Assembly: GCA_046289265.1 (NCBI GenBank)
Contig: JBKBWD010000021.1
Span: 2,626-66,625, forward strand
From: Bryobacteraceae bacterium
Lineage (GTDB): Bacteria > Acidobacteriota > Terriglobia > Bryobacterales > Bryobacteraceae
Reading direction: 5' to 3'
Length of the DNA: 64,000 bases
Shown: one piece after another, positions 18,901 to 40,546 of the stretch
Layout: each line of letters starts with the position of its first letter
Position numbering within the stretch: position 1 is the first letter of the stretch
Translations under genes and position numbers: made by a program
Notes under the pieces: generated by a model
The model's database searches: none
The model's input: the letters and a program-made list of their open reading frames with translations, nothing else
Told to the model about the DNA's origin: nothing

Positions 18901-19688
18901 GGATCGACGATGTCCTCACCGAGACACTCGGCCTGACCCTCGACCAGGAGACCCGCTTCCGCCGCCACTATCTGGTGACTTACGGCTACAGGCTTCAGAA
19001 CACCCGGACGCGCGACATCGTGACGCCCGATCCTCTCATTGACATGACGATCCGTACCGCCCCGCTGATCGGGACCTTTACGCGCGATACGCGCGACGGC
19101 CTGCTGGATGCCACGCACGGCTCTTTTTTCTCGAACGCGGTGGAACTGGCCGGCACGATGACCGGCTCGCAGCTCAACTTCGGGAGCTATTTCGGGCAGT
19201 ATTTCCGGTATCACCCGCTTGGCCTGGTGCGCCCCGTGCCGTTCGGCCGGGGCCTGGAGCGGCCGCGCCTGATTCTGGCCGGCACTGTGCGGGCGGGCGT
19301 CGGAGGCGGCTTCGCGGGGCAGATCCTGCCGTTCGCGCAGCGGTTCTTCGCCGGAGGCAGCACGTCGGTGCGCGGATTCCGCCAGAACACGCTCGGTCCG
19401 TTGGGGCCGGACGGACAACCGCTGGGAGGCGACGCGGTCTTCATCAGCAACCTGGAACTCCGGTTCCCGATCTGGAGCATCTTCGACGGCGTGACCTTTT
19501 TCGACGCGGGCAATGTCTTCCTGCGCGCGCAGGACTTCAATCCGCTGAACAGCCGGACGACGGTCGGAGCGGGCTTGCGCCTGCGTCTTCCCTTCTTCCT
19601 GATCCGGTTCGACTACGGCCACAAACTCGACCGGCGTCCGGGCGAAACCGCCGGCCGCTTCTATATAAGCATCGGTCAGGCCTTCTGA
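12915..19688 (+). CDS. giant envelope protein: TamB/AsmA-like N-terminal ~1,500 aa fused to a POTRA + Omp85 (TamA/BamA-like) beta-barrel
   Basis: GTG start with AGGA 7 nt upstream and an N-terminal signal-anchor (LSLAALVLSGILLLILTTVLLLH). A long beta-rich region ends in a TamB C-terminal (DUF490-type) signature (ILSSDPPLPEPDIIAVLLTGRT ... LLYSMNLADSADQIWILAYNVTRRFLTRVMRQQDGTTRFEFRHDMRFG). A Pro/Arg linker leads to POTRA-like repeats (IGEVRIFGDPFFPESEIERRL, VGRLEFLGNAAFTDAQLL, VVQEAEIAGNEITSDRFVRGEL). The barrel carries the Omp85 loop-6 motif FFAGGSTSVRGF and a C-terminal aromatic beta-signal (RFYISIGQAF). Confidence 0.8.
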   Translation: MTLTSKLSLAALVLSGILLLILTTVLLLHTEPARRFTLDRVEDVLRRRGIDLEAERLDYNLWQLSATLTNVTIRSEATPDLPPFARIRSVSAEISLRALLDGVIRVRNVRVQEPDIHLVIDERGRNNIPRPPEREEPRDFLIESLVASQGSLRIVDRRQPLIVSLPQWQTVVAGDPATLAHEIRFQTQQRGQATLEGRPLAIERVAANVRTARNVTEIRSVTVNADNLRIGVAGQIRNGVVNLTADADLRLGPLLRFAGVTQDVQGDFTVRADIRGPTDHPRILATMHGRNIRVEGLAGIDLRAETAYIVGAQRVELTRFRMQSPAGAAEGRADIALTAQAGRSFVQANIDRLDVGQVSRILESPIQIASRATGTVNAWFQGLAFRQAEADITLRLTPTIERPAEDVLPVGGQLSAVFRPGRLAMDLRPIEALGTRAEGQVRFALPGWAMDGDVRVAIPSIDTTLSKTADFVGRETLLPFDVDGPARAEARLEGTLTSPLITATLFTEDAEIGDLRPVTIDAGVVVDPAQVAIRESTVRWADQALVAEGTIGIRAPQPLAISARLVEASVPAILAAAGRPDIPAEGLVTAEAEVGGTLGAPEVEFTAVGWDLAAYGEPLGAFEAQASLRNQLFELSRFRLDKPPPGLEGGTLDAYGTYNLGTGVYTIAAEGTNLRIEQLVLPGDVPVRGVLNLAAQGEGTVDDPVLRGGLSVADLRVRGEEVGQAAAQFYVADREALLGAEVPLYNLTSTARIGIDAPFPARFHVRFDQTDIERLPVEFPRPVTGTITARVDGNAELARPEDAHIAAVIPELAIVVDQMPVRAEEPILLRYATRTLFVDQAEITADDSRLEVAGSLPLDTTAPPGRIAIRGDINMQTIVIFIPVRQPLTGRGRVELAAELRGYLTAIEPEATIRLADGFINSPNFNPIVDLEVAAFLRDGLFVLERASWFYAAGTFEAAGRVPLAMLPWNLPLVAPPRPETAQLSLVIDRLDLGATGELPDPIGGVISLRLDAQAPEHRLEALRARAVFDRLELEIDDLLIEQREPVTLAAANGIARIEQLNLVGPQTLIQASGTVGLADPYPLALRLGGDLDASILALFADNVRARGETRVEVVAGGTWRGPQVTGFAQVANADITITPPGLAFEHMNARFDLDRDRVTITQLESDLNGGRFRAGGTFRLGPQGPENIFVDAQAEDVFLNYPVGFRTLSEAAISVRSKDALILIGGDVRVLEGLYTEPILVETQLLRALRGGDAIDLTIERRPFLERIRYNVNVQTVDPVVIDNNIARLAIEADLRVVGTYYRPSVVGNLALEEGGDIFLNERRYIVERGVVNFVSEQRIQPSLDIVGSARAGGYDVTIRVTGEPGDIRTILSSDPPLPEPDIIAVLLTGRTLEEVRAAEVTVAQEQALSLLAGNLGLLLAQQTQAAFGFTRVRIDPLLISPEVSPAARLTVSQDLTRDLNLLYSMNLADSADQIWILAYNVTRRFLTRVMRQQDGTTRFEFRHDMRFGGTPRPLPRHPVRPRNIGEVRIFGDPFFPESEIERRLGLRPGARYEFFRVRRRMDRLEDFYAERDYLETRIRLRRIEQNDTVDLDFTVMAGPRVQFVYEGWIVSPSLRERIREIWRTGVFDIQRAEDAALAIRENLVREGHVLGTVEYVITTPAPNLKRVLFEIRPGPWFREFPIVFEGARAIPPEELERVLQDAQRRVEVFTRPREVVNFLRRYYREHGYLDAEIELPRYAPDPGARTGRAVIVIAEGRQSRVGRLEFLGNAAFTDAQLLAAIPLKEGAPFLPEQRELSFTQLQDMYLAQGYDQVEITYQTERRRQEMLVDLVFFITENRQAVVQEAEIAGNEITSDRFVRGELPMTQGQALTPDVLSLTRRNLYRTGAFTTVDVETRTVPDRIGLMPFQRPVRTIVSVREVQPYQLRYGGFFDTERGPGLISDTVTYNTLGGGRALGLRLRYDSQFQDARLYFQQPVTRALPVLTNAVVSATRLRIDDVLTETLGLTLDQETRFRRHYLVTYGYRLQNTRTRDIVTPDPLIDMTIRTAPLIGTFTRDTRDGLLDATHGSFFSNAVELAGTMTGSQLNFGSYFGQYFRYHPLGLVRPVPFGRGLERPRLILAGTVRAGVGGGFAGQILPFAQRFFAGGSTSVRGFRQNTLGPLGPDGQPLGGDAVFISNLELRFPIWSIFDGVTFFDAGNVFLRAQDFNPLNSRTTVGAGLRLRLPFFLIRFDYGHKLDRRPGETAGRFYISIGQAF

Positions 19689-21136
19689 GCCAGCCGCTTG
19701 CGCACGCGCCGCCAGCCGTTGCCCTTGTCGAGCAGCGCGGACAGGCGCCGCACGGTGGAAGCATGTTTCGCGTCGGCAGCCACGTTCCGGGCGGCAAGCG
19801 GCCCGGACGCATGGTCGTAAAGTTCGCGGGCTGCGATCTCGCCGGTTTCGCGATGGATCCATTCGGTGTATCGCCAACGATCATGACGCAGCGAGTAACC
19901 CATGTGATTGCCCTGACGCGGGTACTGCGAGAAGGCTGCCTCCTTCCACGAACGGCGCGGATTATCGAGCAGAGGAACCATCGACGTGCCCTCGCAGTGC
20001 TCCGGGATTTCCAGGCCGCACAATTCCGCCAGCGTCGGATAGACATCGACGAACTCGACCAACGCCCTGGTCGAGGCGCCGCGCAGCTTCCTCCCCGGCG
20101 CGCGCAGCAACAGAGGCACGTGCGTGTCGATCTCGAAGTTGGTGTGCTTACACCAGGCGCCGTAGTCGTTGAGCTTCCACCCGTGATCGCCCCATAGCAC
20201 CACGATCGTGTTGTCCGCCAGTCCGAGACGATCCAACTCGGCGAGCACACGGCCCACCTGGGCGTCCATGTAGGAGACGCACGCCGCGAAGCCGTGGATC
20301 AGCTCGCGCGCCAGCCGGTCGGAGACCTTGCCGGTGGCCGGGATGCCGGCGTAGTTGCGCAGTTCGCCCCAGTTGGAGCGCGCGATCTCGGGCGAATCGG
20401 CCGGCCAGTCCGGCTGCGTCGCGATCCGGAGTTTCGCAGGATCGTAGAGGTCCCAGTACTTCTTCGGCGCGTTGAACGGGAGGTGCGGCTTGAGAAATCC
20501 CGCGGCAAGGAAGAAGGGGCGGTCTTTCAGCCGACGGAGTTCCTCGATGGCCCTGTCGGCGCTCTGTCCGTCAGGATAGGCGTGGTCGGCGACGTCGGGA
20601 CGTTCGTAAGCGGGCCCGCGGCCCGGCGCCTGTCCGGGCGCAGCCGCTGCCTTGCGCTCCTCGATGATCCTGATCGACTCCGGATCATAGTACGTTGCCC
20701 AGGTGGTCTCGGGGCGCCAGGGTCTGACGGACCATCCGCGCGGATCATCGTCGATGTGGTGATAAATTTTGCCGAGCGAGACGGTCTCGTAGCCGCTGTT
20801 GCGGAAGTGCTGCGGCATCGTGAGCAGGTCAGGCAGAACGGTACGCAGCGGCGTAACCAGATCGTAGACGCGCGTGGTATCGGGCCGCGCGCCGCTCAGC
20901 AGCGAAATCCGCGAGGGCGCGCACACCGCCTGCTGACAATAGGCGGCGTCGAAGCGCATCCCGGTTGCCGCCAGCCGATCGAGATTCGGCGAATGGATCT
21001 CTTGGTGGCCGTATCAGCCGAGGGTGGGCCGCAAATCATCAATCGCGAGGAAGAGGACATTGGGCCGGCGTGCCTGGGCTGCCGCCGTGGAAACGGCGCC
21101 GCAGGCAGCCGCGAGAAAGCTGCGTCGTGTGGTCAT
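19676..21136 (-). CDS. iduronate-2-sulfatase-like Tat-exported sulfatase interrupted by one in-frame TGA (21016..21014): pseudogene, sequencing error or recoded codon
   Basis: The ORF track shows only 19676..20959 (MRFDAAYCQQAVCAPSR..., with the formylglycine motif CAPSR). Reading the same frame upstream gives [65 protein letters not shown]. This comprises a twin-arginine signal, the DD metal-binding motif and a stop exactly where the paralog at 39113 has Cys (LGCYGH). Confidence 0.7.
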
Positions 21137-30688: not shown

Positions 30689-31887
30689 AGGCGCAACCAG
30701 GCGCCGGCAACGTGGTCCGCACGGGCTCGTTCGAGAAGGTGTTCGCGGCCCTGGCGGCCCACCTCCGCCATGGCGGTCCGGTCGCTGAGCGCCCTTGCGA
30801 GTACGCCTGCCAGGGCGGCCGGGTCTTCGGGAGGCACAAGCCAGCCGGTCACGCCGTCCTCGATTAACTCGGGAAACGCTCCGACGCTAGTCGCCAAAAC
30901 GGGAACACCGTGGGAGACAGCGAGCCCCGAAACCCCGCTCGCGCTGATGTCGTGATAGGGGCAGGCCAGCAGGTCGGCGGCCGCAAAATACGTGCGCACT
31001 TCGCTTTTCGGGATGTAGCCAAGCCGCCACAGTACGCGGTCGCCGGCTGCCTGCCGGGCCTGCTCGCGAAGGTCTTCGATTGGCATCATCGGCTCGCCGG
31101 CGATGACGATGCGGGCATCGGGTACGTCACGCAGGAGGTCAGGCAAGGCGTCAATCAGGAGATCGAGCCCCTTGTAGGGTTTAATCAGCCCGAAGAACAG
31201 CGCGACGGGTTTGTCGTCCGGGAGGCCAAATTGTCGGCGCGCGGCCAGACGCTCCTCGGGGGTGATCAGGTCCAGGATCTCGGCCGGCTGCGGGATGACT
31301 TCGATAGGGGTGCCATCGAGGCCGCACTCCCCGGTCAACCGCTTCGCCAGACCGGGACTATGGACGTGGACGGCGTGCGCCATCCGGAGCGCGCCAGCGA
31401 GTCCCCAGGAGGGCGTGACGACGCCGCTGAACCGGGGCAGGTCGTGGATCGTGACCACGATTCGCCACCCGCGCCGCCGCAGCGCGCCGAGCAGCAGGCG
31501 GTCGGCCGCCGGCAGCAGCAACCATTGGGAGTGGAAGACGCCCGGGTTTTCGTCCCTGAGGAGCTTCCAGGTTCGGAGCAGTCCGGCGGGATAGGAGAGC
31601 CCCTTGTAGATCTGTCGTAACAGTGTCCGGGACTTAAGCCAGCGGCCGAGCGGATGATCGAGGAACCGGAAAAAGAGCCGCCTTTCGCCCTCGGGCACGG
31701 GAACCGTTGAGGGATCGAACAGCGGCGCCGAAGTGATGACGCGTACCGAAGCACCCTGCCTGTCTAGCGCTTCGCGGAGCACCCGCACGTAATTCGGCAC
31801 GAAGGCTCCGGGATCGAACAGCACGACGTTCGTGGCACAGTAGAAGATAGTATTCGCGATGCCGGCGCCCTTCGTTTCAGTCGTCAT
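30646..31887 (-). CDS. glycosyltransferase family 4 (GT-B, group 1)
   Basis: C-terminal GT1/GT4 pattern: LIKPYKGLDLLIDAL, IAGEP, DLLACPYHDISASGVSGLAVSHGVPVLATSVGAFPELIEDGVTGWLVPPEDP (E-x7-E-like motif). Confidence 0.8.
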   Translation of the reverse strand: MTTETKGAGIANTIFYCATNVVLFDPGAFVPNYVRVLREALDRQGASVRVITSAPLFDPSTVPVPEGERRLFFRFLDHPLGRWLKSRTLLRQIYKGLSYPAGLLRTWKLLRDENPGVFHSQWLLLPAADRLLLGALRRRGWRIVVTIHDLPRFSGVVTPSWGLAGALRMAHAVHVHSPGLAKRLTGECGLDGTPIEVIPQPAEILDLITPEERLAARRQFGLPDDKPVALFFGLIKPYKGLDLLIDALPDLLRDVPDARIVIAGEPMMPIEDLREQARQAAGDRVLWRLGYIPKSEVRTYFAAADLLACPYHDISASGVSGLAVSHGVPVLATSVGAFPELIEDGVTGWLVPPEDPAALAGVLARALSDRTAMAEVGRQGREHLLERARADHVAGAWLRLYESLSTDRSLGRT

Positions 31888-32746
31888 ACCCGCCTACCAG
31901 TATCCTGCAGGACTGCGCCGGTGCCTGGCCGCACTCGGCCGGCAGAGCCTTCCGCACGGCGCCTTCGAAGTGCTGGTAGTCGACGACGGCAGCCCCGAAC
32001 CGCTGGAACCGGCGCTGGCGCCTGGGATGGGACGCGAAAGCGGCGCCTTTTCGGTGCGGTTTCTGCGGGTTCCCAACGGCGGACCGGCGCGCGCGCGGAA
32101 CCTCGGGGTCCAGGCGGCGCGCGGAGAGTGGATCGCCTTTACCGACCATGACTGCGAGCCGGATGCCGGCTGGCTGCACCATCTCGCCGCGAGCGCCCGC
32201 GAGCATGGCGATGTGCTGCTCGGCGGCCCGAAGCGCAACGGGTTGCCGGAGAATCCGTACTCGGCCGCGCATGAGAGTTTGTCGGACTTCGTCGTACGCT
32301 GGTTCGCGCGGCCCGGACACCCTGTGCCGTTCTTCACGACGAATAACCTGGCGATGCGGAGGGAGTCGTTCCTGAGCCTCGGGGGGTTCGACGGCCGGTT
32401 CCCATTCGCGCACGAGGACCGCGACTTTGCCTTCCGCTGGAAAGCGACCGGCCGAGGAATGCACTTTGTCTCCAAGGCCGTGGTTACGCACTATCACGAC
32501 TATACGTTAGCCTCCTTCTGCCGGCAGCACTTCCGCTACGGACAGGGCGCCGCGGACTTTCACCGCGCCCGCTGTAAATCGAAAGAGCCACGACCGCGGT
32601 TCGAGGGGCTGCGCTTCTACTCGGCGATGCTCCGCGAGCCCTGGCGCGAAGCGAACGGTTGGCGGGCGGCCCGGTCGTCGGCCCTGATCGCGCTCTCTCA
32701 GGCGCTGTATGCGCTCGGCTACTACTCCCATCGCCGCGCGTCATAG
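31859..32746 (+). CDS. glycosyltransferase family 2
   Basis: VSVVIPAYQ, VVDDGSPEP and FTDHDCEPDAGWL are classical GT-A/GT2 motifs. Confidence 0.8.
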   Translation: MPAPFVSVVIPAYQYPAGLRRCLAALGRQSLPHGAFEVLVVDDGSPEPLEPALAPGMGRESGAFSVRFLRVPNGGPARARNLGVQAARGEWIAFTDHDCEPDAGWLHHLAASAREHGDVLLGGPKRNGLPENPYSAAHESLSDFVVRWFARPGHPVPFFTTNNLAMRRESFLSLGGFDGRFPFAHEDRDFAFRWKATGRGMHFVSKAVVTHYHDYTLASFCRQHFRYGQGAADFHRARCKSKEPRPRFEGLRFYSAMLREPWREANGWRAARSSALIALSQALYALGYYSHRRAS

Positions 32747-33899: not shown

Positions 33900-34205
33900 T
33901 TACCAGCTCTCGTCGGCCGGGAAGACGTTGGCGTACTTGACGCTGGTGCGCGGCTCGGCCATCATCGGGGCCACGGCGTCGCGCCATGCGGCGTAATGAG
34001 CGGTTTCTTTGTGGCGCGCCGGGGATTCGGCATCGCGGTAGACTTCCACCAGAACGAACCGCGTCGGGTCGTCAGCCTGCTGGAGGACGTCGAAGCGGGC
34101 GATGCCCGGCTCCCGGACGCTGTTGCGGGCGTTCTCGATCGTCGCCTCCCGGAAGGCTTCCACGAATTCCGGCTTCACATGCGCGTAAACTTGAACAATC
34201 AACAT
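33900..34205 (-). CDS. antibiotic biosynthesis monooxygenase (ABM) domain protein / putative quinol monooxygenase
   Basis: 101 aa. ...[41 protein letters not shown]... is the typical ABM ferredoxin-like fold signature. Confidence 0.8.
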
Positions 34206-34234: not shown

Positions 34235-35110
34235 ATGCAAGGCCCCAACCGCTTCAATCTGGTGCTGATGCTGGCCCCCGCGACGCTGGTCCTCGGCGGC
34301 CTGTTCGCTGGCGGCCTGGCGCTGGGATTGCTGGAGAGCATCGGTGTAGCGGGCCTTTCGAGCGACGGATTTACCACGGAGCATTACTTGGCGCTGCTTT
34401 CGGACCGGGAGTTTCGCGCCTCGCTGGGGTTTTCCTTCGCGATGGCGGCCATCGCGACACTGCTCTCCACTGTATTCGGGGTCGCGATGGCGCTGGCGAT
34501 CCACCACCACCGCAAGGAGAGCCGGCTGGCCCGGATGCTGATCCAGTTTCCAGTCGCGATGCCGCACCTGGCGATCGCGATGGTGGTGATTCATCTGCTC
34601 GCGCCGAGCGGCCTGCTCGCGCGCGGGGCTTACGCGGCCGGATGGATCGGGGAGCCGGCCGAGTTCCCGGCGGTCATCCAGGACGCCTACGGGATCGGCA
34701 TCCTCGTGGCCTATGTCTGGAAGGAAACGCCCTTTTTGGCGGTTGTCGCATTGGCCATGCTGGCGCGGACGGGTGAGGAGTACGATCTATGCGCCCGCAC
34801 GCTTGGGGCGACGACGTGGCAGCGGCTGCGCTACGTCACGCTGCCCTTGATCGCGCCGGGCGTCATCTCGGCCTCGCTGATCGCCCTGGCTTTCGTATTC
34901 AGTTCGTTCGAGACCCCGTTTCTTCTGGGACGCCCGTATCCGGCGATGCTGGGCGTGGTGGCGCAGCGGCGCTTTATGAGTGCCGACCTGGCGGACCGGC
35001 CGGCCGCGCTCGCGTTGGCGCTGGCAATGGCCGTAGTGACCGCGGCGGCCGTGTGGCTGTATCTGAAACTGGCCGAGCGCTTCGTCGGAGAAAGGCCGGC
35101 GGTGTTTTGA
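34235..35110 (+). CDS. ABC transporter permease (binding-protein-dependent type)
   Basis: Six predicted TM segments and an EAA-like loop region ([23 protein letters not shown]). Confidence 0.8.
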
Positions 35111-35877
35111 GGACGCGCGGACTTGCGGCTGTGGCGACCGCCGCCCTGCTGGCGCTGGTTCCGGTGGCGTTGCTGGCGGTCTGGTCGCTGGCGTGGGGAT
35201 GGCGATGGCCGCAATTGATTCCGGAGGAGTGGTCCTTGCGGGGCTGGCGGTATGTTGCCTCGCCGGGATCCGATGCGGCGGCGGCGTCGGGAACAAGCCT
35301 TTGGATTGCAACGGCTGTCGCCTTTCTTTCGGTGGCCATCGCGCTGCCGGCCGGGCGCGCGCTCGCCTGGCATGAGTTCCGGGGCAAACGCGCTTTCCTG
35401 TTTCTGTTGCTGCTGCCGGTCCTGGCGCCCCCGTTGGCGGCCGCGATGGGCGTCCACTCGGTCTTCTTGCGGTTCGGGCTGACGGGGCATCCGCTCGGTG
35501 TCATTCTGGTGCACCTGATTCCCGCAGTCCCATACGCGGCGCTGGTGTTGACAGGCAGTTTCTCACGCTTCGACCCCGATTGGGAGGCGCAGGCCCGGAC
35601 GCTGGGGGCGAGTCCGCTGCAAACATGGATAAGGGTTACGCTGCCGTCGATTGCGCCGGGTGCGGCCGTGGCGGCCGGCTTCGCCTTTCTCATCTCCTGG
35701 AGCCAATACCTGTTCACACTGCTGATCGGCGAGGGAAGCGTCCTGACGCTGCCGCTGCTGCTGGTGGCCTTCCAGCGGGGGGGCGATGAGGCGGTCGCTG
35801 CGGCGCTTTCGCTGGTCTTCCTGGCGCCGGCCTTCGCGGCCTTCACGCTGGTCGCGGGATTCCTGAGAAGTTCATGA
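35107..35877 (+). CDS. ABC transporter permease (second subunit)
   Basis: EAA-like loop ARTLGASPLQTWIRVTLPSIAPG. The ORF track frame opens at 34789 inside the previous gene. A TTG at 35107 overlapping the upstream TGA (TTGA) is the most plausible start. Confidence 0.7.
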   Translation: MRTRGLAAVATAALLALVPVALLAVWSLAWGWRWPQLIPEEWSLRGWRYVASPGSDAAAASGTSLWIATAVAFLSVAIALPAGRALAWHEFRGKRAFLFLLLLPVLAPPLAAAMGVHSVFLRFGLTGHPLGVILVHLIPAVPYAALVLTGSFSRFDPDWEAQARTLGASPLQTWIRVTLPSIAPGAAVAAGFAFLISWSQYLFTLLIGEGSVLTLPLLLVAFQRGGDEAVAAALSLVFLAPAFAAFTLVAGFLRSS

Positions 35878-37091
35878 GAGGCGTACTCTTTGTTTTGTTG
35901 CTGCTGCTGGCGGGCTGCTCGGCTGAACGCGAGGGGACGCGGCTCGATCCGTCGGATCTGGAGCGGCTGTCCTGGGAGGAGGTCGCCGCGCAGGCACGGA
36001 ACAGCACCGTCCGGTTCGGCATGTGGGGCGGCGATGAGGAGCGGAACCGTTACTTTCGATCGAGTGTCCGCGAATCCTTATTGGACTGTTGCGGAATCGA
36101 CCTGCGGATCATCACGGCCGGCGACACGGCGGAACTCATCAACATGCTGCTGAATGAGAAGCGCGCGGGGAAGCTTCGCAACGGTTTGCTCGATATGATC
36201 TGGATCAACGGCGAGAACTTCCGGACGGCCAAACAGGGCGGCGTACTGTGGGGGCCGTTCGCGCAGCGGCTGCCGAATTTCGGGCTTTACAGTCCGGAGG
36301 CGTCGGCCCGCGACTTCGGCACGCCCACCGAAGGCTTCGAGGCGCCCTGGCAGCGGGCGCAGTTTGTGATGGCCTATGACTCGGCGCGCGTGCCCGAGCC
36401 TCCGCGCACCATCGAGGCGCTGGCCGAGTGGGTCCGGCGGCACCCTGGGCGCTTCACGTATCTCGCGCCGCCGGATTTCACCGGCTCGGCGTTTATACGC
36501 CATCTGCTGCTGCATTTCGGCAACTACGATCGGCGGTTCCAGGAGGCCTTCGACGAAGAGCTTTATAAGGCGGCCTCGGAGCGGACTATCGCGTTCCTGA
36601 ACGATTTGCGGCCCTTCCTCTGGCGCAAGGGCGAAACCTATCCATCGACTCCGCGCGAGCAGGACCGGCTCTTCGCCAATCACGAAATCGACTTTGCGAT
36701 GAGCTACGGACCGTCGTTCGTGTCGGTGCGGATCGCGCGCGGCGAGTTCCCGGTGACGGCTCGCACCTTCGTTTTCGATACCGGCACCATCGCCAACTAC
36801 AATTATCTGGCGATTCCATTCAATGCGCCGAACGCCGCGGGTGCGCTGGTCGCGATCACTCATCTGATGTCGTTCGAACAGGCGTTGGACCTCTCGATCG
36901 CGCTGCGGTCGGCGTTTCCACTCGACCTGACTCGTCTGACGGAAGAGCAGCGCGCCAAGGCGGAAGCGCTTCCGGTCGGACTCGGGATGCTGCCCGCGAG
37001 GGTTCTGGCGGCGCGCGCGCTGACCGAGCCCGATGCCGAGTACCTGGTCCGAATCGAGCGGGACTGGCTGGAGAGGGTGTTGCGCCGGTGA
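35874..37091 (+). CDS. ABC transporter substrate-binding lipoprotein (YnjB-like)
   Basis: Lipobox LLLLLAGCS. The ~400 aa periplasmic-binding-protein-size protein has ATGA overlaps with both neighbours. Confidence 0.7.
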   Translation: MRGVLFVLLLLLAGCSAEREGTRLDPSDLERLSWEEVAAQARNSTVRFGMWGGDEERNRYFRSSVRESLLDCCGIDLRIITAGDTAELINMLLNEKRAGKLRNGLLDMIWINGENFRTAKQGGVLWGPFAQRLPNFGLYSPEASARDFGTPTEGFEAPWQRAQFVMAYDSARVPEPPRTIEALAEWVRRHPGRFTYLAPPDFTGSAFIRHLLLHFGNYDRRFQEAFDEELYKAASERTIAFLNDLRPFLWRKGETYPSTPREQDRLFANHEIDFAMSYGPSFVSVRIARGEFPVTARTFVFDTGTIANYNYLAIPFNAPNAAGALVAITHLMSFEQALDLSIALRSAFPLDLTRLTEEQRAKAEALPVGLGMLPARVLAARALTEPDAEYLVRIERDWLERVLRR

Positions 37092-38083
37092 AGCAGTCCG
37101 GCACATGGGTCGAGATGCGGGACGTGACGGCCGGCTATGGTGCGGAGCCCGTGCTCTCGGGGTTCTCGCTTGATGTACCGGCGGGGGAGCTGGTGGCGCT
37201 GCTTGGGCCGTCGGGATGCGGCAAGACCACGGTGCTGCGGGTACTCGCCGGGCTGCTTTCGTGTGAGGCGGGAGAGATCCGGCTCGACGGCGAGCGGGTG
37301 AATGAATTACCGGCCGAGCGGCGGCAGATTGCCCTTGTCTTCCAGAAGCCGCTGCTGTTTCCTCACCTGAATGTGTCGGAAAATGTCGGATTCAGCCGGA
37401 AGATGCGGGGCGAGGCGAAAGCCGCGACGGCCCGGCGTGTGGCCGAGGCGCTCGAATTGGTGCAGCTTGCGGGCTTCGGCGATCGGAGACCAAAGGAGCT
37501 TTCCGGCGGCCAGGAGCAGCGGGTCGCGCTGGCGCGCGCGCTGGTGAGCGAGCCGCGCGTGCTGCTGCTCGACGAGCCCTTCTCCGCCCTGGATGAGAAC
37601 CTGCGGGCGGAGATGCGGGCTCTGGTCCGATCGGTACAGCGCGAGTTGGGCCTCACGACGATCTTTGTCACGCACGACCAGGACGAGGCGTGTGTGCTGG
37701 CATCGCGGATCGCCCTGCTGCTCGACGGCCGGATCGAGCAGTTCGGCGCTCCGCGCGAGTTCTATACGGCTCCGCGGAGCATCCGGGCGGCGCGCTTCTT
37801 CGGATGGTTTTTCGCGCGCGAGCCGGGCGGCCGGACGGTCGCGTTCCGGCCGGAAGCGGCGCGCCTTTGCGGTCCCGAGGCGCAAGCCGGTTCCGGATGG
37901 CTGGCCGTGGAGGCCGTGGTCGAGGATTCGCTCGATCTCGGGCACCGGCTGCGGACGCGACTGCGCGCGGCGTCGGGCGAGACGGTTGAGATCGAACATG
38001 CCCCACCGGGCCGGGCGGCGGGGGAGCGGGCTGCGATACTGATTCCAGAGGAGAGCGTGTGGAGTCCATCTATTTCGTCCTGA
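37088..38083 (+). CDS. ABC transporter ATP-binding protein
   Basis: Walker A GPSGCGKTT, signature LSGGQEQRVALARAL, Walker B LLLDEP and a C-terminal TOBE-like tail. Confidence 0.9.
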   Translation: MKQSGTWVEMRDVTAGYGAEPVLSGFSLDVPAGELVALLGPSGCGKTTVLRVLAGLLSCEAGEIRLDGERVNELPAERRQIALVFQKPLLFPHLNVSENVGFSRKMRGEAKAATARRVAEALELVQLAGFGDRRPKELSGGQEQRVALARALVSEPRVLLLDEPFSALDENLRAEMRALVRSVQRELGLTTIFVTHDQDEACVLASRIALLLDGRIEQFGAPREFYTAPRSIRAARFFGWFFAREPGGRTVAFRPEAARLCGPEAQAGSGWLAVEAVVEDSLDLGHRLRTRLRAASGETVEIEHAPPGRAAGERAAILIPEESVWSPSISS

Positions 38084-39102
38084 CGTGGCTATGCCACCGC
38101 ACCTGCGAGCACTGCTACGAGGAGCGCTTCCGGCCGTACTACGGCGAAGATTTGCGGCGCGTGGTCGAGGAGTCCAGGACGAACATGCCGCGAATCATTG
38201 AGAATCTGCCGGAGCGCATGCAGTACCTCAACCTGAACGATCCCGACGGCCTGGGGGGCTTTCGCGAGAAGCGGGGACGCATCATCGTGGCGGGAGGCGA
38301 AATCCTGCTCGATCCGGTGCGGGAGCCGGTGCTCTATCCGGCGATCGAGCAGCTTCAGGCGAAGTACCGGGACGATGGCGGGGTCGAGCTGGTGGTCCAG
38401 ACGACGGGCGATATCCTTACCGAACGGATCGTTCGGGAGTTGCTGGAGCGCGGCGTCTCCGTGATCTCAGTTTCGGGTTTGGATGCGTATCACGAGGGTA
38501 TCGGCGAGCCGGCGGCGCAGGAACGGCTGCGCGCGAAGCTGACCGCGATATTCCGGGCGCACGGCATGGAGGAGTGGCAACCGGCGCCGCGTCCAGCCGG
38601 CGCGAGGTACTTCCACTTCTTTGGAGCGACGCCGGAATCCTGGATCGGCAAGCTCTGGCCGCGCGGCCGCGCACACAGGAATGAGCTGTCCCAAGCCACG
38701 CTCGCCGATAACTTTTGCAACCGGTGGTCCGGCGGGTTGAATTTTCTGGCGTATCGCTACAGCGGCTCCGAGGTGTCGATCGAGCCGAACGGCAACGTCT
38801 ATCCCTGCTGTCTGAAGACGAAGGCGCCGGTGGGCAACCTTCTCGAAGAGAAGCTGGAGGCGATTCTTGACCGGCTGGCGGGCGATCCGGTCTACGAGGC
38901 GATCTCGATGGGGCACCCGGAACGTATGGGCATCGCGCACGGATGGAGCGTAGAGAAGTTTCTGGAGCGGTCGACAGTCCGACTGCCCTCGGGGCGTGTT
39001 TACCAGAACCTGTGCATCGGCTGCGACGCCTTCCACGAGGAGGTACTCGGAAGGGCCGCAGGCGCGCTGGTTTCCATTCGTGCGGGCACGGATCTGGGAT
39101 AA
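38059..39102 (+). CDS. radical SAM enzyme with C-terminal Cys-rich (SPASM/twitch-like) region, function unknown
   Basis: CxxxCxxC at the extreme N-terminus (LCHRTCEHCYE). C-terminal Cys residues lie in NFCNRW, NGNVYPCCLK and NLCIGCDAF. GTG start with GAGGAG 4-5 nt upstream, located inside the last 25 nt of the ATPase gene. Confidence 0.75.
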   Translation: MESIYFVLTWLCHRTCEHCYEERFRPYYGEDLRRVVEESRTNMPRIIENLPERMQYLNLNDPDGLGGFREKRGRIIVAGGEILLDPVREPVLYPAIEQLQAKYRDDGGVELVVQTTGDILTERIVRELLERGVSVISVSGLDAYHEGIGEPAAQERLRAKLTAIFRAHGMEEWQPAPRPAGARYFHFFGATPESWIGKLWPRGRAHRNELSQATLADNFCNRWSGGLNFLAYRYSGSEVSIEPNGNVYPCCLKTKAPVGNLLEEKLEAILDRLAGDPVYEAISMGHPERMGIAHGWSVEKFLERSTVRLPSGRVYQNLCIGCDAFHEEVLGRAAGALVSIRAGTDLG

Positions 39103-39112
39103 ACTGTAGCCC

Positions 39113-40546
39113 ATGTCCGGACTGAATCGTCGTGCTTTCCTGTCAGCGGTAGCCGCAGGCGCTCCCTATCTCCTGTTGGGGCAGAAGACGGCGTCGGAGC
39201 GGGTGAACGTTCTGTTCATCGCCTCCGACGATCTGAACAATTGCCTCGGATGCTATGGGCATCCGCTGGTGCAGTCGCCGAATATCGACGACCTGGCGCG
39301 GCGCGGGGTCCGTTTCGATCGCGCCTATTGCCAGTATCCGATGTGCGGTCCGAGCCGCACGTCGATTCTGAGCGGGATGCGGCCGGATACGACGCGCATC
39401 TGGCAAAACGAGATCGCGGTGCGGGACAAGCTGCCGGATGTTGTGACGCTGCCGCAACTGTTCCGCCAGAACGGCTACCTGTCCGCACGCTATGGAAAGA
39501 TGTACCACATGGGCGTGCCTACGACAGTGGGCAAGAACCTGTATGATGACCCTCCGTCGTGGGACATCGCGGTGAGTCCTCCGGGCGCCGAGAACAAAAC
39601 CAAAGGCGAGGGGCGCAATATCACGCCGCATATCGGGGCAGGCGGCGCGATGCACTGGATCAGTTTCCAGGGCGACGGCAAAGACCAGGCCGACCAGGCC
39701 GCGGCGGAGTTGACGATCGAGACGATCGATAAGAACCGCGACCGCCCGTGGTTTTTGGGGCTGGGGTTCGTGCGGCCGCATGTGCCTCTGGTGGCGCCTT
39801 CGAGATTTTTTGACCTGTATCCGCTCGACAGAATCAAGCCGGTTGTGAATCCGGAAAACGACCGCGACGACATTCCCCTAGCCAGTGAGATCGCGATCAA
39901 CACCCGGGCTAACGACATGGGGATGAAGACCGATGCTGAGAAGAAAGAGGCGCTGCGCGGCTACTATGCGTCGATCTCGTACATGGATTCGCTGGTAGGA
40001 CGGGTAGTGGATCACCTCGAACGGCTGAAGCTGCGCGAGCGGACGGCGATCGTGTTCTGGAGCGATCACGGCTGGCACCTGGGCGAACACTTCCGCTGGC
40101 AGAAACGGAGCCTGTTCGAGGAGTCTGCGCGCGTGCCCCTGATCGTCTCGGCTCCGGGGCGTAAGGGCAACGGGAAGGCCTCGCGCGCTCTGGTCGAACT
40201 GGTGGACCTCTACCCGACGGTGGCGGACCTGTGCGGCGTGAAGGCGCCGGCCGATCTCGAAGGCCGAAGCTTCGCGCCCGTTCTCGATCAGCCGAACCGG
40301 CGATGGAAGAGCGCAGCGTTCACGCAGGTCTCGGCGCAGAACGGGATCGTCGGACGCGCTGTCTGCACGGATCGCTATCGCTATATCCGGTGGGAGGGGC
40401 CGCACCCGGACGAGGAGCTCTTCGACCACCAGGTGGACCCGCGGGAGTACACCAACTTGGCGCGCGACGCGTCGAAGGCGAACCTGCTGAAGGAGATGCG
40501 CGGCGTGCTCGACCGGGGCTGGCGGGCGGCACGCGCGAGAGTTTAG
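39113..40546 (+). CDS. Tat-exported sulfatase (iduronate-2-sulfatase-like, Cys-type)
   Basis: Twin-arginine signal (NRRAFLSAVAAG), VLFIASDDL, LGCYGH, formylglycine motif CGPSR, HVPL and SDHGWHLGEH. Confidence 0.85.
   Translation: MSGLNRRAFLSAVAAGAPYLLLGQKTASERVNVLFIASDDLNNCLGCYGHPLVQSPNIDDLARRGVRFDRAYCQYPMCGPSRTSILSGMRPDTTRIWQNEIAVRDKLPDVVTLPQLFRQNGYLSARYGKMYHMGVPTTVGKNLYDDPPSWDIAVSPPGAENKTKGEGRNITPHIGAGGAMHWISFQGDGKDQADQAAAELTIETIDKNRDRPWFLGLGFVRPHVPLVAPSRFFDLYPLDRIKPVVNPENDRDDIPLASEIAINTRANDMGMKTDAEKKEALRGYYASISYMDSLVGRVVDHLERLKLRERTAIVFWSDHGWHLGEHFRWQKRSLFEESARVPLIVSAPGRKGNGKASRALVELVDLYPTVADLCGVKAPADLEGRSFAPVLDQPNRRWKSAAFTQVSAQNGIVGRAVCTDRYRYIRWEGPHPDEELFDHQVDPREYTNLARDASKANLLKEMRGVLDRGWRAARARV

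Follow-up and report, generated by a model that had tools for sequence, protein, structure and literature searches.

A 64,000-nucleotide (nt) stretch of contig JBKBWD010000021.1 from a Bryobacteraceae bacterium (phylum Acidobacteriota; assembly GCA_046289265.1), referred to here as the window and numbered from its first letter, carries a row of six co-directional genes. In this row, the gene for a radical S-adenosylmethionine (SAM) enzyme stands between the genes of an ATP-binding cassette (ABC) importer and a gene for a sulfatase with a twin-arginine translocation (Tat) signal. All six open reading frames (ORFs) were present at the coordinates given in an initial annotation of this DNA, and their identities were backed by profile searches. 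The features are listed below, with protein lengths in amino acids (aa).

34235-35110, plus strand: ABC permease 1, 291 aa (PF00528, BPD_transp_1, 67.7 bits)
35107-35877, plus strand: ABC permease 2, 256 aa (PF00528, BPD_transp_1, 45.7 bits)
35874-37091, plus strand: YnjB-type substrate-binding lipoprotein, 405 aa (NF008633/PRK11622, 419.1 bits against a cut-off of 203; lipobox LLLAGC)
37088-38083, plus strand: ABC ATPase with a C-terminal TOBE_2 domain, 331 aa (PF00005, 135.6 bits; PF08402, 24.3 bits)
38048-38053, plus strand: GAGGAG, a Shine-Dalgarno-like motif read from the sequence, 5 nt before the radical SAM GTG
38059-39102, plus strand: radical SAM enzyme with a putative Twitch-type C-terminal domain, 347 aa (CX3CX2C, GGE, and invariant Cys; family without a name)
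39113-40546, plus strand: Tat-signal, Cys-type sulfatase, 477 aa (PF00884, 164.6 bits; SGSH_C; motifs NRRAFL and CGPSR)

Read directly, the junction between the two permease genes is a TTGA overlap (35107-35110) and that between permease 2 and the binding protein is an ATGA overlap (35874-35877), both as initially annotated, whereas the junction between the binding protein and the ATPase, also described as ATGA, reads GTGA (37088-37091). The GTG start of the radical SAM gene at 38059 does fall within the last 25 nt of the ATPase gene, which stops with TGA at 38081-38083, giving an overlap of 25 nt. However, the GAGGAG that had been assigned to those same 25 nt lies outside them, although still within the ATPase gene. 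The radical SAM start is backed by the N-terminal residues MESIY, which are common to most of 32 aligned homologs. The sulfatase ATG was correctly placed 10 nt past the radical SAM stop (TAA), and no promoter-like or terminator-like site was detected between the ATPase, radical SAM, and sulfatase genes. The GC content was unremarkable. Permease 1 showed 50 to 56% identity to the first permease of the same cassette in related loci (L019-L021, L047, and L078), and permease 2 showed 64 to 72% identity to its counterparts in relatives. At the upstream edge, an LsrG-like divergent gene (33900-34205, minus strand) starts only 29 nt from the annotated permease 1 ATG (34235); because of this short gap, the start of permease 1 is uncertain and may lie further downstream.

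A radical SAM family without a name

The protein encoded at 38059-39102 belongs to the radical SAM superfamily by its Cys motif with an adjoining aromatic residue, its GGE motif, and its AlphaFold2 (AF2) model, which matched radical SAM structures with a probability of 1.0. The CX3CX2C motif consists of C12, C16, and C19 and is followed by Y20, all of which were invariant among 33 family members, and the GGE SAM-binding motif (G79-G80-E81) was invariant among the family members aligned. The AF2 model had a predicted local distance difference test (pLDDT) value of 85.4. The only Pfam match clearing its threshold was a generic one to SPASM (28.6 bits), and Radical_SAM (PF04055) scored 24.5, below its gathering cut-off of 29.5. 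The best Foldseek matches were EpeE, with a template modeling (TM) score of 0.50 to 0.55, BtrN (0.58 on the target length), and the anaerobic sulfatase-maturating enzyme, anSME (about 0.4), at identities of 12 to 15%. Further matches were to the peptide-modifying enzymes SuiB, CteB, and SkfB.

The initial annotation had counted five Cys besides the CX3CX2C at residues 12 to 19 and had judged them sufficient for one auxiliary cluster, unlike the situation in anSME. The count was correct. The five residues (C220, C250, C251, C319, and C322) were invariant in the 33 family members and are spaced as C220-x24-G-x4-C250(C251), then C319-x2-C322. In the predicted secondary structure, there is a hairpin of strands E238-241 and E246-248, C250 follows the hairpin, and C319 and C322 sit at the start of helix 318-334. 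We took a Twitch domain to be a truncated SPASM domain with a beta-hairpin, a helix, and three or four Cys for one auxiliary cluster. In the Twitch layout described for BtrN, one Cys precedes the hairpin, one follows it, and a distal pair completes the set, while the seven-Cys SPASM motif is CX9-15GX4C-gap-CX2CX5CX3C-gap-C and holds two auxiliary [4Fe-4S] clusters (PMC6231123). By Cys pattern and predicted secondary structure, C220, C250, C319, and C322 fit one Twitch-type auxiliary-cluster motif. The window protein has no CX2CX5CX3C and so lacks the seven-Cys SPASM motif. Those four C-terminal Cys were kept into a sister family, and across the two families C251 is replaced by Asn in one member.

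The family is compact and isolated in sequence space, since its profile recovered only 381 proteins at an E value of ≤0.001 among 1.84 billion representatives, the sister family among them. In metagenomes, more than 1,900 matches were found; the best 120 were 64 to 77% identical to the window protein, and the named ones were mostly Acidobacteriota. The sister family, at 29 to 35% identity, has in common with it the motifs CX3CX2C, GGE, QTxGD, W-x-RGRA, NFC, PCC, and CxxCD and is without an insertion of about 25 residues that follows the cluster loop in the window protein. NCBIfam searches with the window protein, with four close relatives, and with five members of the sister family gave matches to generic radical SAM models only, all of them far short of the cut-offs. 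PDB sequence searches with the protein and with its family profile gave only chance matches, and a literature search returned no paper holding both "radical SAM" and "YnjB." We found no Pfam, NCBIfam, PDB, or literature entry that describes this radical SAM family. Some sources automatically name its homologs "sulfatase maturation enzyme AslB."

Linkage to a YnjB-type importer

The match of the binding protein to NF008633 spanned residues 5 to 401 and cleared the cut-off, and E. coli was the only one of 14 control genomes to match the same model. The AF2 model of the binding protein (pLDDT 93.6) was about equally close in Foldseek to binders of Fe(III), polyamines, 2-aminoethylphosphonate, sugar phosphates, and metal citrate (TM 0.48 to 0.65), and a PDB sequence search gave no matches. 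Trp, Asp, Asn, and Glu are prominent among the invariant residues of the binding-protein family, which include no Tyr, His, Cys, or Ser. Tyr and His are the Fe(III) ligands in FbpA and FutA. The composition is weakly suggestive of a cationic organic ligand for YnjB rather than Fe(III). YnjBCD was called "uncharacterized" in a 2022 paper (PMC9207381), the papers that we found on YnjB, YnjC, and YnjD give no function, and the preprint by Haft on an organometallic ABC system concerns a different system.

The initial annotation had proposed asking whether homologs of the radical SAM enzyme co-occur with sulfatases, with YnjB-like ABC systems, or with both. We compared 160 homologous loci, 80 from genomes and 80 from metagenome contigs that were scanned with an alignment including more divergent members; in the latter, the radical SAM protein is 53 to 67% identical to that of the window. 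Flanking ORFs were called heuristically, on the basis of GC content at third codon positions. Linkage to YnjB-like systems was found, and adjacency to sulfatases was not: a search (tblastn) with the window sulfatase gave an adjacent sulfatase in none of the 160 loci, and the nearest to any homolog lay 6.6 kb off (L024). The metagenome loci formed one clade in the tree, and 57 of the 59 with enough flanking sequence had a YnjB-type binding protein. Its gene was directly downstream of the radical SAM gene in 56 and upstream in one; two had none, and the flank was too short in 20. Where the flank was long enough, the radical SAM gene was usually followed by genes for the binding protein (about 405 aa), a fused permease (about 560 aa), and an ATPase (about 215 aa), which together have the architecture of E. 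coli YnjB/C/D. The window permeases are 25 to 34% identical to this fused permease.

The Acidobacteriota clade, which includes the window, showed the YnjB system in 9 of 56 informative loci, in at least three gene orders. The importer was upstream, in the same order and with an overlap, in the window and in L019-L021; it was divergent in L047 and L064 and, by permease match, in L063; and it was downstream in L078. Six contigs (L041, L047, L060, L063, L064, and L069) are labeled "uncultured Heliobacteriaceae/Heliomicrobium" (Bacillota). These labels are probably wrong because the radical SAM genes of five of the six are nested in well-supported Blastocatellia clades, with that of L069 falling in a tree fold labeled "none." The sister family is linked to the importer as well, in an array of TonB receptor, YnjB, permease, ATPase, and radical SAM genes in genome G176. 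Across 401 Acidobacteriota genomes, the radical SAM ortholog was found in five, YnjB in ten, and both in four. YnjB was thus present in 4 of 5 genomes with the radical SAM gene and in 6 of 396 without it (Fisher P = 1e-6, uncorrected for phylogeny), and three genomes (G016, G101, and G251) have the two genes on separate contigs.

Linkage that persists through the shuffling of gene order, together with unlinked co-occurrence and linkage in the distant sister family, argues for a functional partnership. We consider it likely, on these comparisons of gene content, that the radical SAM enzyme is a partner of the upstream ABC importer and not of the downstream sulfatase. This agrees with the second of two readings offered initially, in which an unrelated radical SAM enzyme works on whatever substrate is imported; that reading draws support from the importer linkage in several gene orders and from the co-occurrence.

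Several points weigh against the partnership. Linkage is loose in the Acidobacteriota clade because 47 of the 56 informative loci lack a YnjB gene within about 10 kb. Six Acidobacteriota genomes and E. coli have YnjB but not the radical SAM gene, so that the importer can do without the enzyme. Only 10 nt and no predicted terminator separate the radical SAM stop from the sulfatase start, and a local functional tie is possible. The substrate could also be a protein or peptide because the best structural matches include EpeE, SuiB, CteB, and SkfB. Finally, the mechanism proposed below is by analogy only.

If the enzyme does partner the importer, the YnjB-type lipoprotein would capture a small hydrophilic, possibly cationic solute in the periplasm, and the two permeases and TOBE-domain ATPase would import it, roles suggested by family membership and fold. 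In the cytoplasm, the radical SAM enzyme would cleave SAM at a [4Fe-4S] cluster held by C12, C16, and C19, and the resulting 5'-deoxyadenosyl radical would abstract a hydrogen from the imported solute or add to it. A single Twitch auxiliary [4Fe-4S] cluster (C220, C250, C319, and C322) might take an electron from the substrate radical or bind the substrate, and the reaction on a small molecule could be BtrN-like, either a two-electron oxidation or a bond cleavage. Oxidation-type chemistry in particular is perhaps what the enzyme performs, a tentative suggestion made by analogy. The Tat-exported sulfatase would be a lineage-specific addition to the 3' end of the operon and would not be the substrate of the radical SAM enzyme. 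A dedicated, conserved radical SAM partner would mean that the transported compound needs radical chemistry inside the cell. It would also give the orphan YnjBCD transporter, a family represented in E. coli K-12, an enzymatic handle for ligand and activity screens, and it adds a radical SAM family that is without a curated model, structure, or literature.

The other neighbors of the radical SAM gene varied by lineage. TonB-dependent-receptor-like outer-membrane proteins are encoded directly upstream of it in 14 Acidobacteriota loci in the main cluster; the cassette of L184 comes after genes for an extracytoplasmic function (ECF) sigma factor and a TonB receptor, and L185 also holds an outer-membrane receptor. 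Clustering otherwise gave lineage-restricted neighbors only, namely, a LuxR-type response regulator, a Pyr_redox_2 flavoprotein, VTT/DedA, DUF547, an MFS transporter, MR_MLE enolase, a methyltransferase, Amidohydro_3, and DUF2064. In 11 metagenome loci of one sub-lineage (within L103-L147, e.g., L127:3304-4659), the Amidohydro_3 gene is directly upstream and co-directional, and some of these have a URC1-like GTP cyclohydrolase gene (GTP_CH_N plus GTP_cyclohydro2) a few genes further up. On a Stellaceae contig (L182:9001-14569), the cassette lies within a cobalamin cluster (CobT, CobS, His_Phos_1/CobC-like, CobU, CobW, CMD, and CobN), and the radical SAM and binding-protein genes are separated by an inserted gene for a Ferric_reduct membrane protein. 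A different ABC importer adjoins the radical SAM gene in five further Acidobacteriota loci (L024, L038, L043, L045, and L065), with an SBP_bac_11-like protein of about 350 aa, an ATPase of 236 aa, and two permeases. We considered this as a distant YnjB relative and rejected the idea; an hhalign probability of 0.8% between its binding protein and YnjB indicated a different system.

Alternative substrates and the sulfatase

One alternative is that the enzyme has an endogenous metabolite as its substrate, such as one in cofactor synthesis, and is only co-regulated with the importer, both responding to one nutrient limitation; the imported solute would then be a precursor or a metal. The cobalamin setting of the Stellaceae cassette, with its inserted Ferric_reduct protein, would fit this, as would the ECF sigma factor and TonB receptor before the L184 cassette, an arrangement seen at metal-uptake loci, and a binding-protein fold as near to Fe(III)-binding proteins as to binders of organic ligands. 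However, the cobalamin setting was found once, the binding-protein family has none of the invariant Tyr or His that ligate Fe(III) in FbpA and FutA, and the remaining flanking genes vary widely, from amidohydrolase and MR_MLE enolase to methyltransferase and carboxyl transferase genes. We regard this alternative as unlikely.

It is also improbable that the enzyme modifies a protein or peptide, whether the YnjB binding protein before export or an unrecognized small peptide, instead of an imported molecule. The peptide-modifying enzymes EpeE, SuiB, CteB, and SkfB are among its top structural matches, the binding protein is the gene product most constantly encoded beside it, and the many invariant Trp, Asp, and Asn of that protein are modifiable in principle. 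Yet the 347-aa enzyme begins its cluster motif at residue 12 and has no extra N-terminal domain for peptide recognition, and clustering of flanking ORFs of at least 90 aa, the size range screened, revealed no recurring peptide-type partner. Moreover, YnjB occurs without the enzyme in E. coli and six Acidobacteriota genomes, the two genes are unlinked in three genomes, and the binding-protein family has no invariant Cys or Ser.

The first reading offered by the initial annotation, that of a shortened, divergent maturase that turns the Cys of the downstream Tat sulfatase into formylglycine before export, is the one that fared worst, and we judge it highly improbable. In its favor are the same-strand sulfatase gene 10 nt downstream, the Cys-type motif of that sulfatase (CGPSR), the presence of anSME among the Foldseek matches, and the automatic AslB names. 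A canonical anSME was also not found in the genome, where the best TIGR03942 score was 33.6 bits, elsewhere in the genome, against a cut-off of 349.45. The radical SAM protein itself gave no match to TIGR03942 at an E value of ≤0.01. It has a single auxiliary-cluster motif, which fits the Twitch type, and its homologs had no adjacent sulfatase. In L019 and L021, the closest relatives with the same gene order, a gene 3 nt after the radical SAM stop would, to judge by eye from its translation, encode a Ddl-like ATP-grasp ligase. These putative D-Ala-D-Ala-ligase-type genes (L019:11018-11349 and L021:11030-12030) occupy the position of the sulfatase, and the L020 copy is seemingly degraded. A search for an FGE/SUMF1-type maturase, suggested at the outset, was positive: the 6.04-Mb genome has six FGE-domain ORFs, three of them at 210 to 294 bits and the best located at C142:19658-20506, alongside 45 sulfatase-domain matches.

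Two further arguments had been made from the locus. The position of the CX3CX2C had been offered as a contrast with anSME, and it is not a real one: anSME and BtrN also carry CX3CX2C within about the first 25 residues. Coupling to an importer had been called odd for a maturase of a Tat substrate. Both known sulfatase maturation systems work in the cytoplasm, ahead of export, and the coupling therefore carries little force either way.

How much weight the adjacent sulfatase deserves could be gauged within the same genome. Its sulfatase density implies a chance of about 1.6% that any given gene has a sulfatase gene on one side or the other. A second, unrelated radical SAM gene (G000:C295:101754-102836; L101:1411-2493), encoding a Twitch-like protein of 360 aa, ends where the gene for a Tat-signal, Cys-type sulfatase begins. 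Its product matched TIGR04317 best, at 104 bits and below the cut-off. Orthologs of this control gene were present in 33 of 60 relatives, and a sulfatase was beside none of the 24 loci examined. We had considered the second pair as a sign of a local maturase theme and rejected it on this absence (24 of 24 relatives). Given a sulfatase-dense genome and an unconserved control pair, sulfatase adjacency is uninformative in this organism.

On the evidence of sequence, gene neighborhood, and genome content, an anSME identity for the radical SAM protein is very unlikely, and the placement of a sulfatase after its gene is, by the loci compared, specific to this lineage. The sulfatase is most likely matured by one of the FGE enzymes of the genome and may be co-regulated with the cassette. 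We would caution that adjacency or weak SPASM matches should not yield names such as "AslB-like sulfatase maturase"; the risk of misnaming is greater in sulfatase-rich genomes, where chance adjacency is common. It is conceivable, though doubtful, that the cassette is a widespread, undescribed pathway of uptake and radical transformation in which the co-operonic Tat sulfatase frees the solute from a sulfate ester in the periplasm. If so, periplasmic desulfation by the sulfatase would be the first chemical clue to the YnjBCD substrate.

The sulfatase at 39113-40546 shows 40% identity to another in the window (19661-21136, minus strand), which we take, by motifs of the human enzyme, to resemble iduronate-2-sulfatase. 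In the latter gene, the codon for the conserved Cys of the LGCYG motif is replaced by an in-frame TGA. The genome encodes SelB (400 bits), and a selenocysteine reading was considered and judged unlikely: six orthologs in relatives have TGT or TGC at this position, and a 67-nt segment beginning at the TGA showed no more stable folding than shuffled sequence did (z = +1.4). The TGA is probably a nonsense mutation or a sequencing error.

Comparison with known systems

The anSME proteins (AslB, AtsB, and anSMEcpe; TIGR03942) and the window protein both combine an N-terminal CX3CX2C with a C-terminal Fe-S domain of the SPASM/Twitch lineage, and here too the gene adjoins that of a Cys-type sulfatase. 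However, anSME has the two-cluster, seven-Cys SPASM domain, whereas the window protein has one motif, no match to the anSME profile, and homologs that are never sulfatase adjacent. The peptide epimerase EpeE/YydG (PDB 8AI2-8AI6) was the best Foldseek match (E value of 4e-8) and likewise has a conserved extra Cys near the auxiliary motif; we can only speculate that C251 acts as does the Cys replaced in the EpeE C223A entry. EpeE differs in that it is only 12 to 14% identical, TIGR04078 gave no match to the window protein, and no recurring precursor-peptide gene (ORFs of at least 90 aa) was found nearby. With ArsS (TIGR04167; partners DUF2064/TIGR04282 and GT2/TIGR04283), the likeness is confined to neighbors. 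A DUF2064 protein is encoded after the radical SAM gene in L024 (TIGR04282, 76 bits against a cut-off of 134), and a GT2 gene upstream in the window (31859-32746) scored only 44.9 bits against TIGR04283 (cut-off, 182). The window protein gave no match to TIGR04167 at an E value of ≤0.01, and a scan of the window ORFs found no DUF2064 protein or ArsM.

BtrN (2-deoxy-scyllo-inosamine dehydrogenase; PDB 4M7T) has the same Cys layout as the window protein, a single auxiliary cluster, and a small molecule, not a protein, as its substrate. It differs in being 15% identical and in belonging to an antibiotic biosynthesis cluster and not to an uptake operon. The window protein is about 100 residues longer than BtrN, with the insertion of about 25 residues and extra C-terminal helices.

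For the transporter, the nearest system is E. coli YnjBCD (COG4134-4136), to whose NF008633 model the window binding protein belongs and whose fused YnjC-like permease and YnjD-size ATPase are found in the metagenome relatives. The E. coli system has no radical SAM partner, and its operon begins with the AhpD/CMD-like ynjA. In place of a fused permease of about 510 to 560 aa and a short ATPase of about 215 aa, the window has permeases of 291 and 256 aa and an ATPase of 331 aa with TOBE_2.

Anaerobic heme degradation (ChuW/HutW, accompanied by a TonB receptor and an ABC importer) and C-P lyase (PhnJ with PhnCDE) follow the same logic as proposed here, in which an outer-membrane receptor in some loci (L184 and L185) and an ABC importer bring in the cargo and a radical enzyme in the cytoplasm processes it. 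Neither system is related in sequence to the one here, and the window binding protein is of another structural class than heme binders. ChuW resembles HemN, and PhnJ falls outside the classical radical SAM proteins. What is new here is the Acidobacteriota form of the cassette, with split permeases, a TOBE-domain ATPase, the radical SAM gene last with a 25-nt overlap, and an appended sulfatase. The enzyme would be of a known kind, a Twitch-type radical SAM protein, and new as an unnamed family in what is probably an undescribed, uptake-coupled role.

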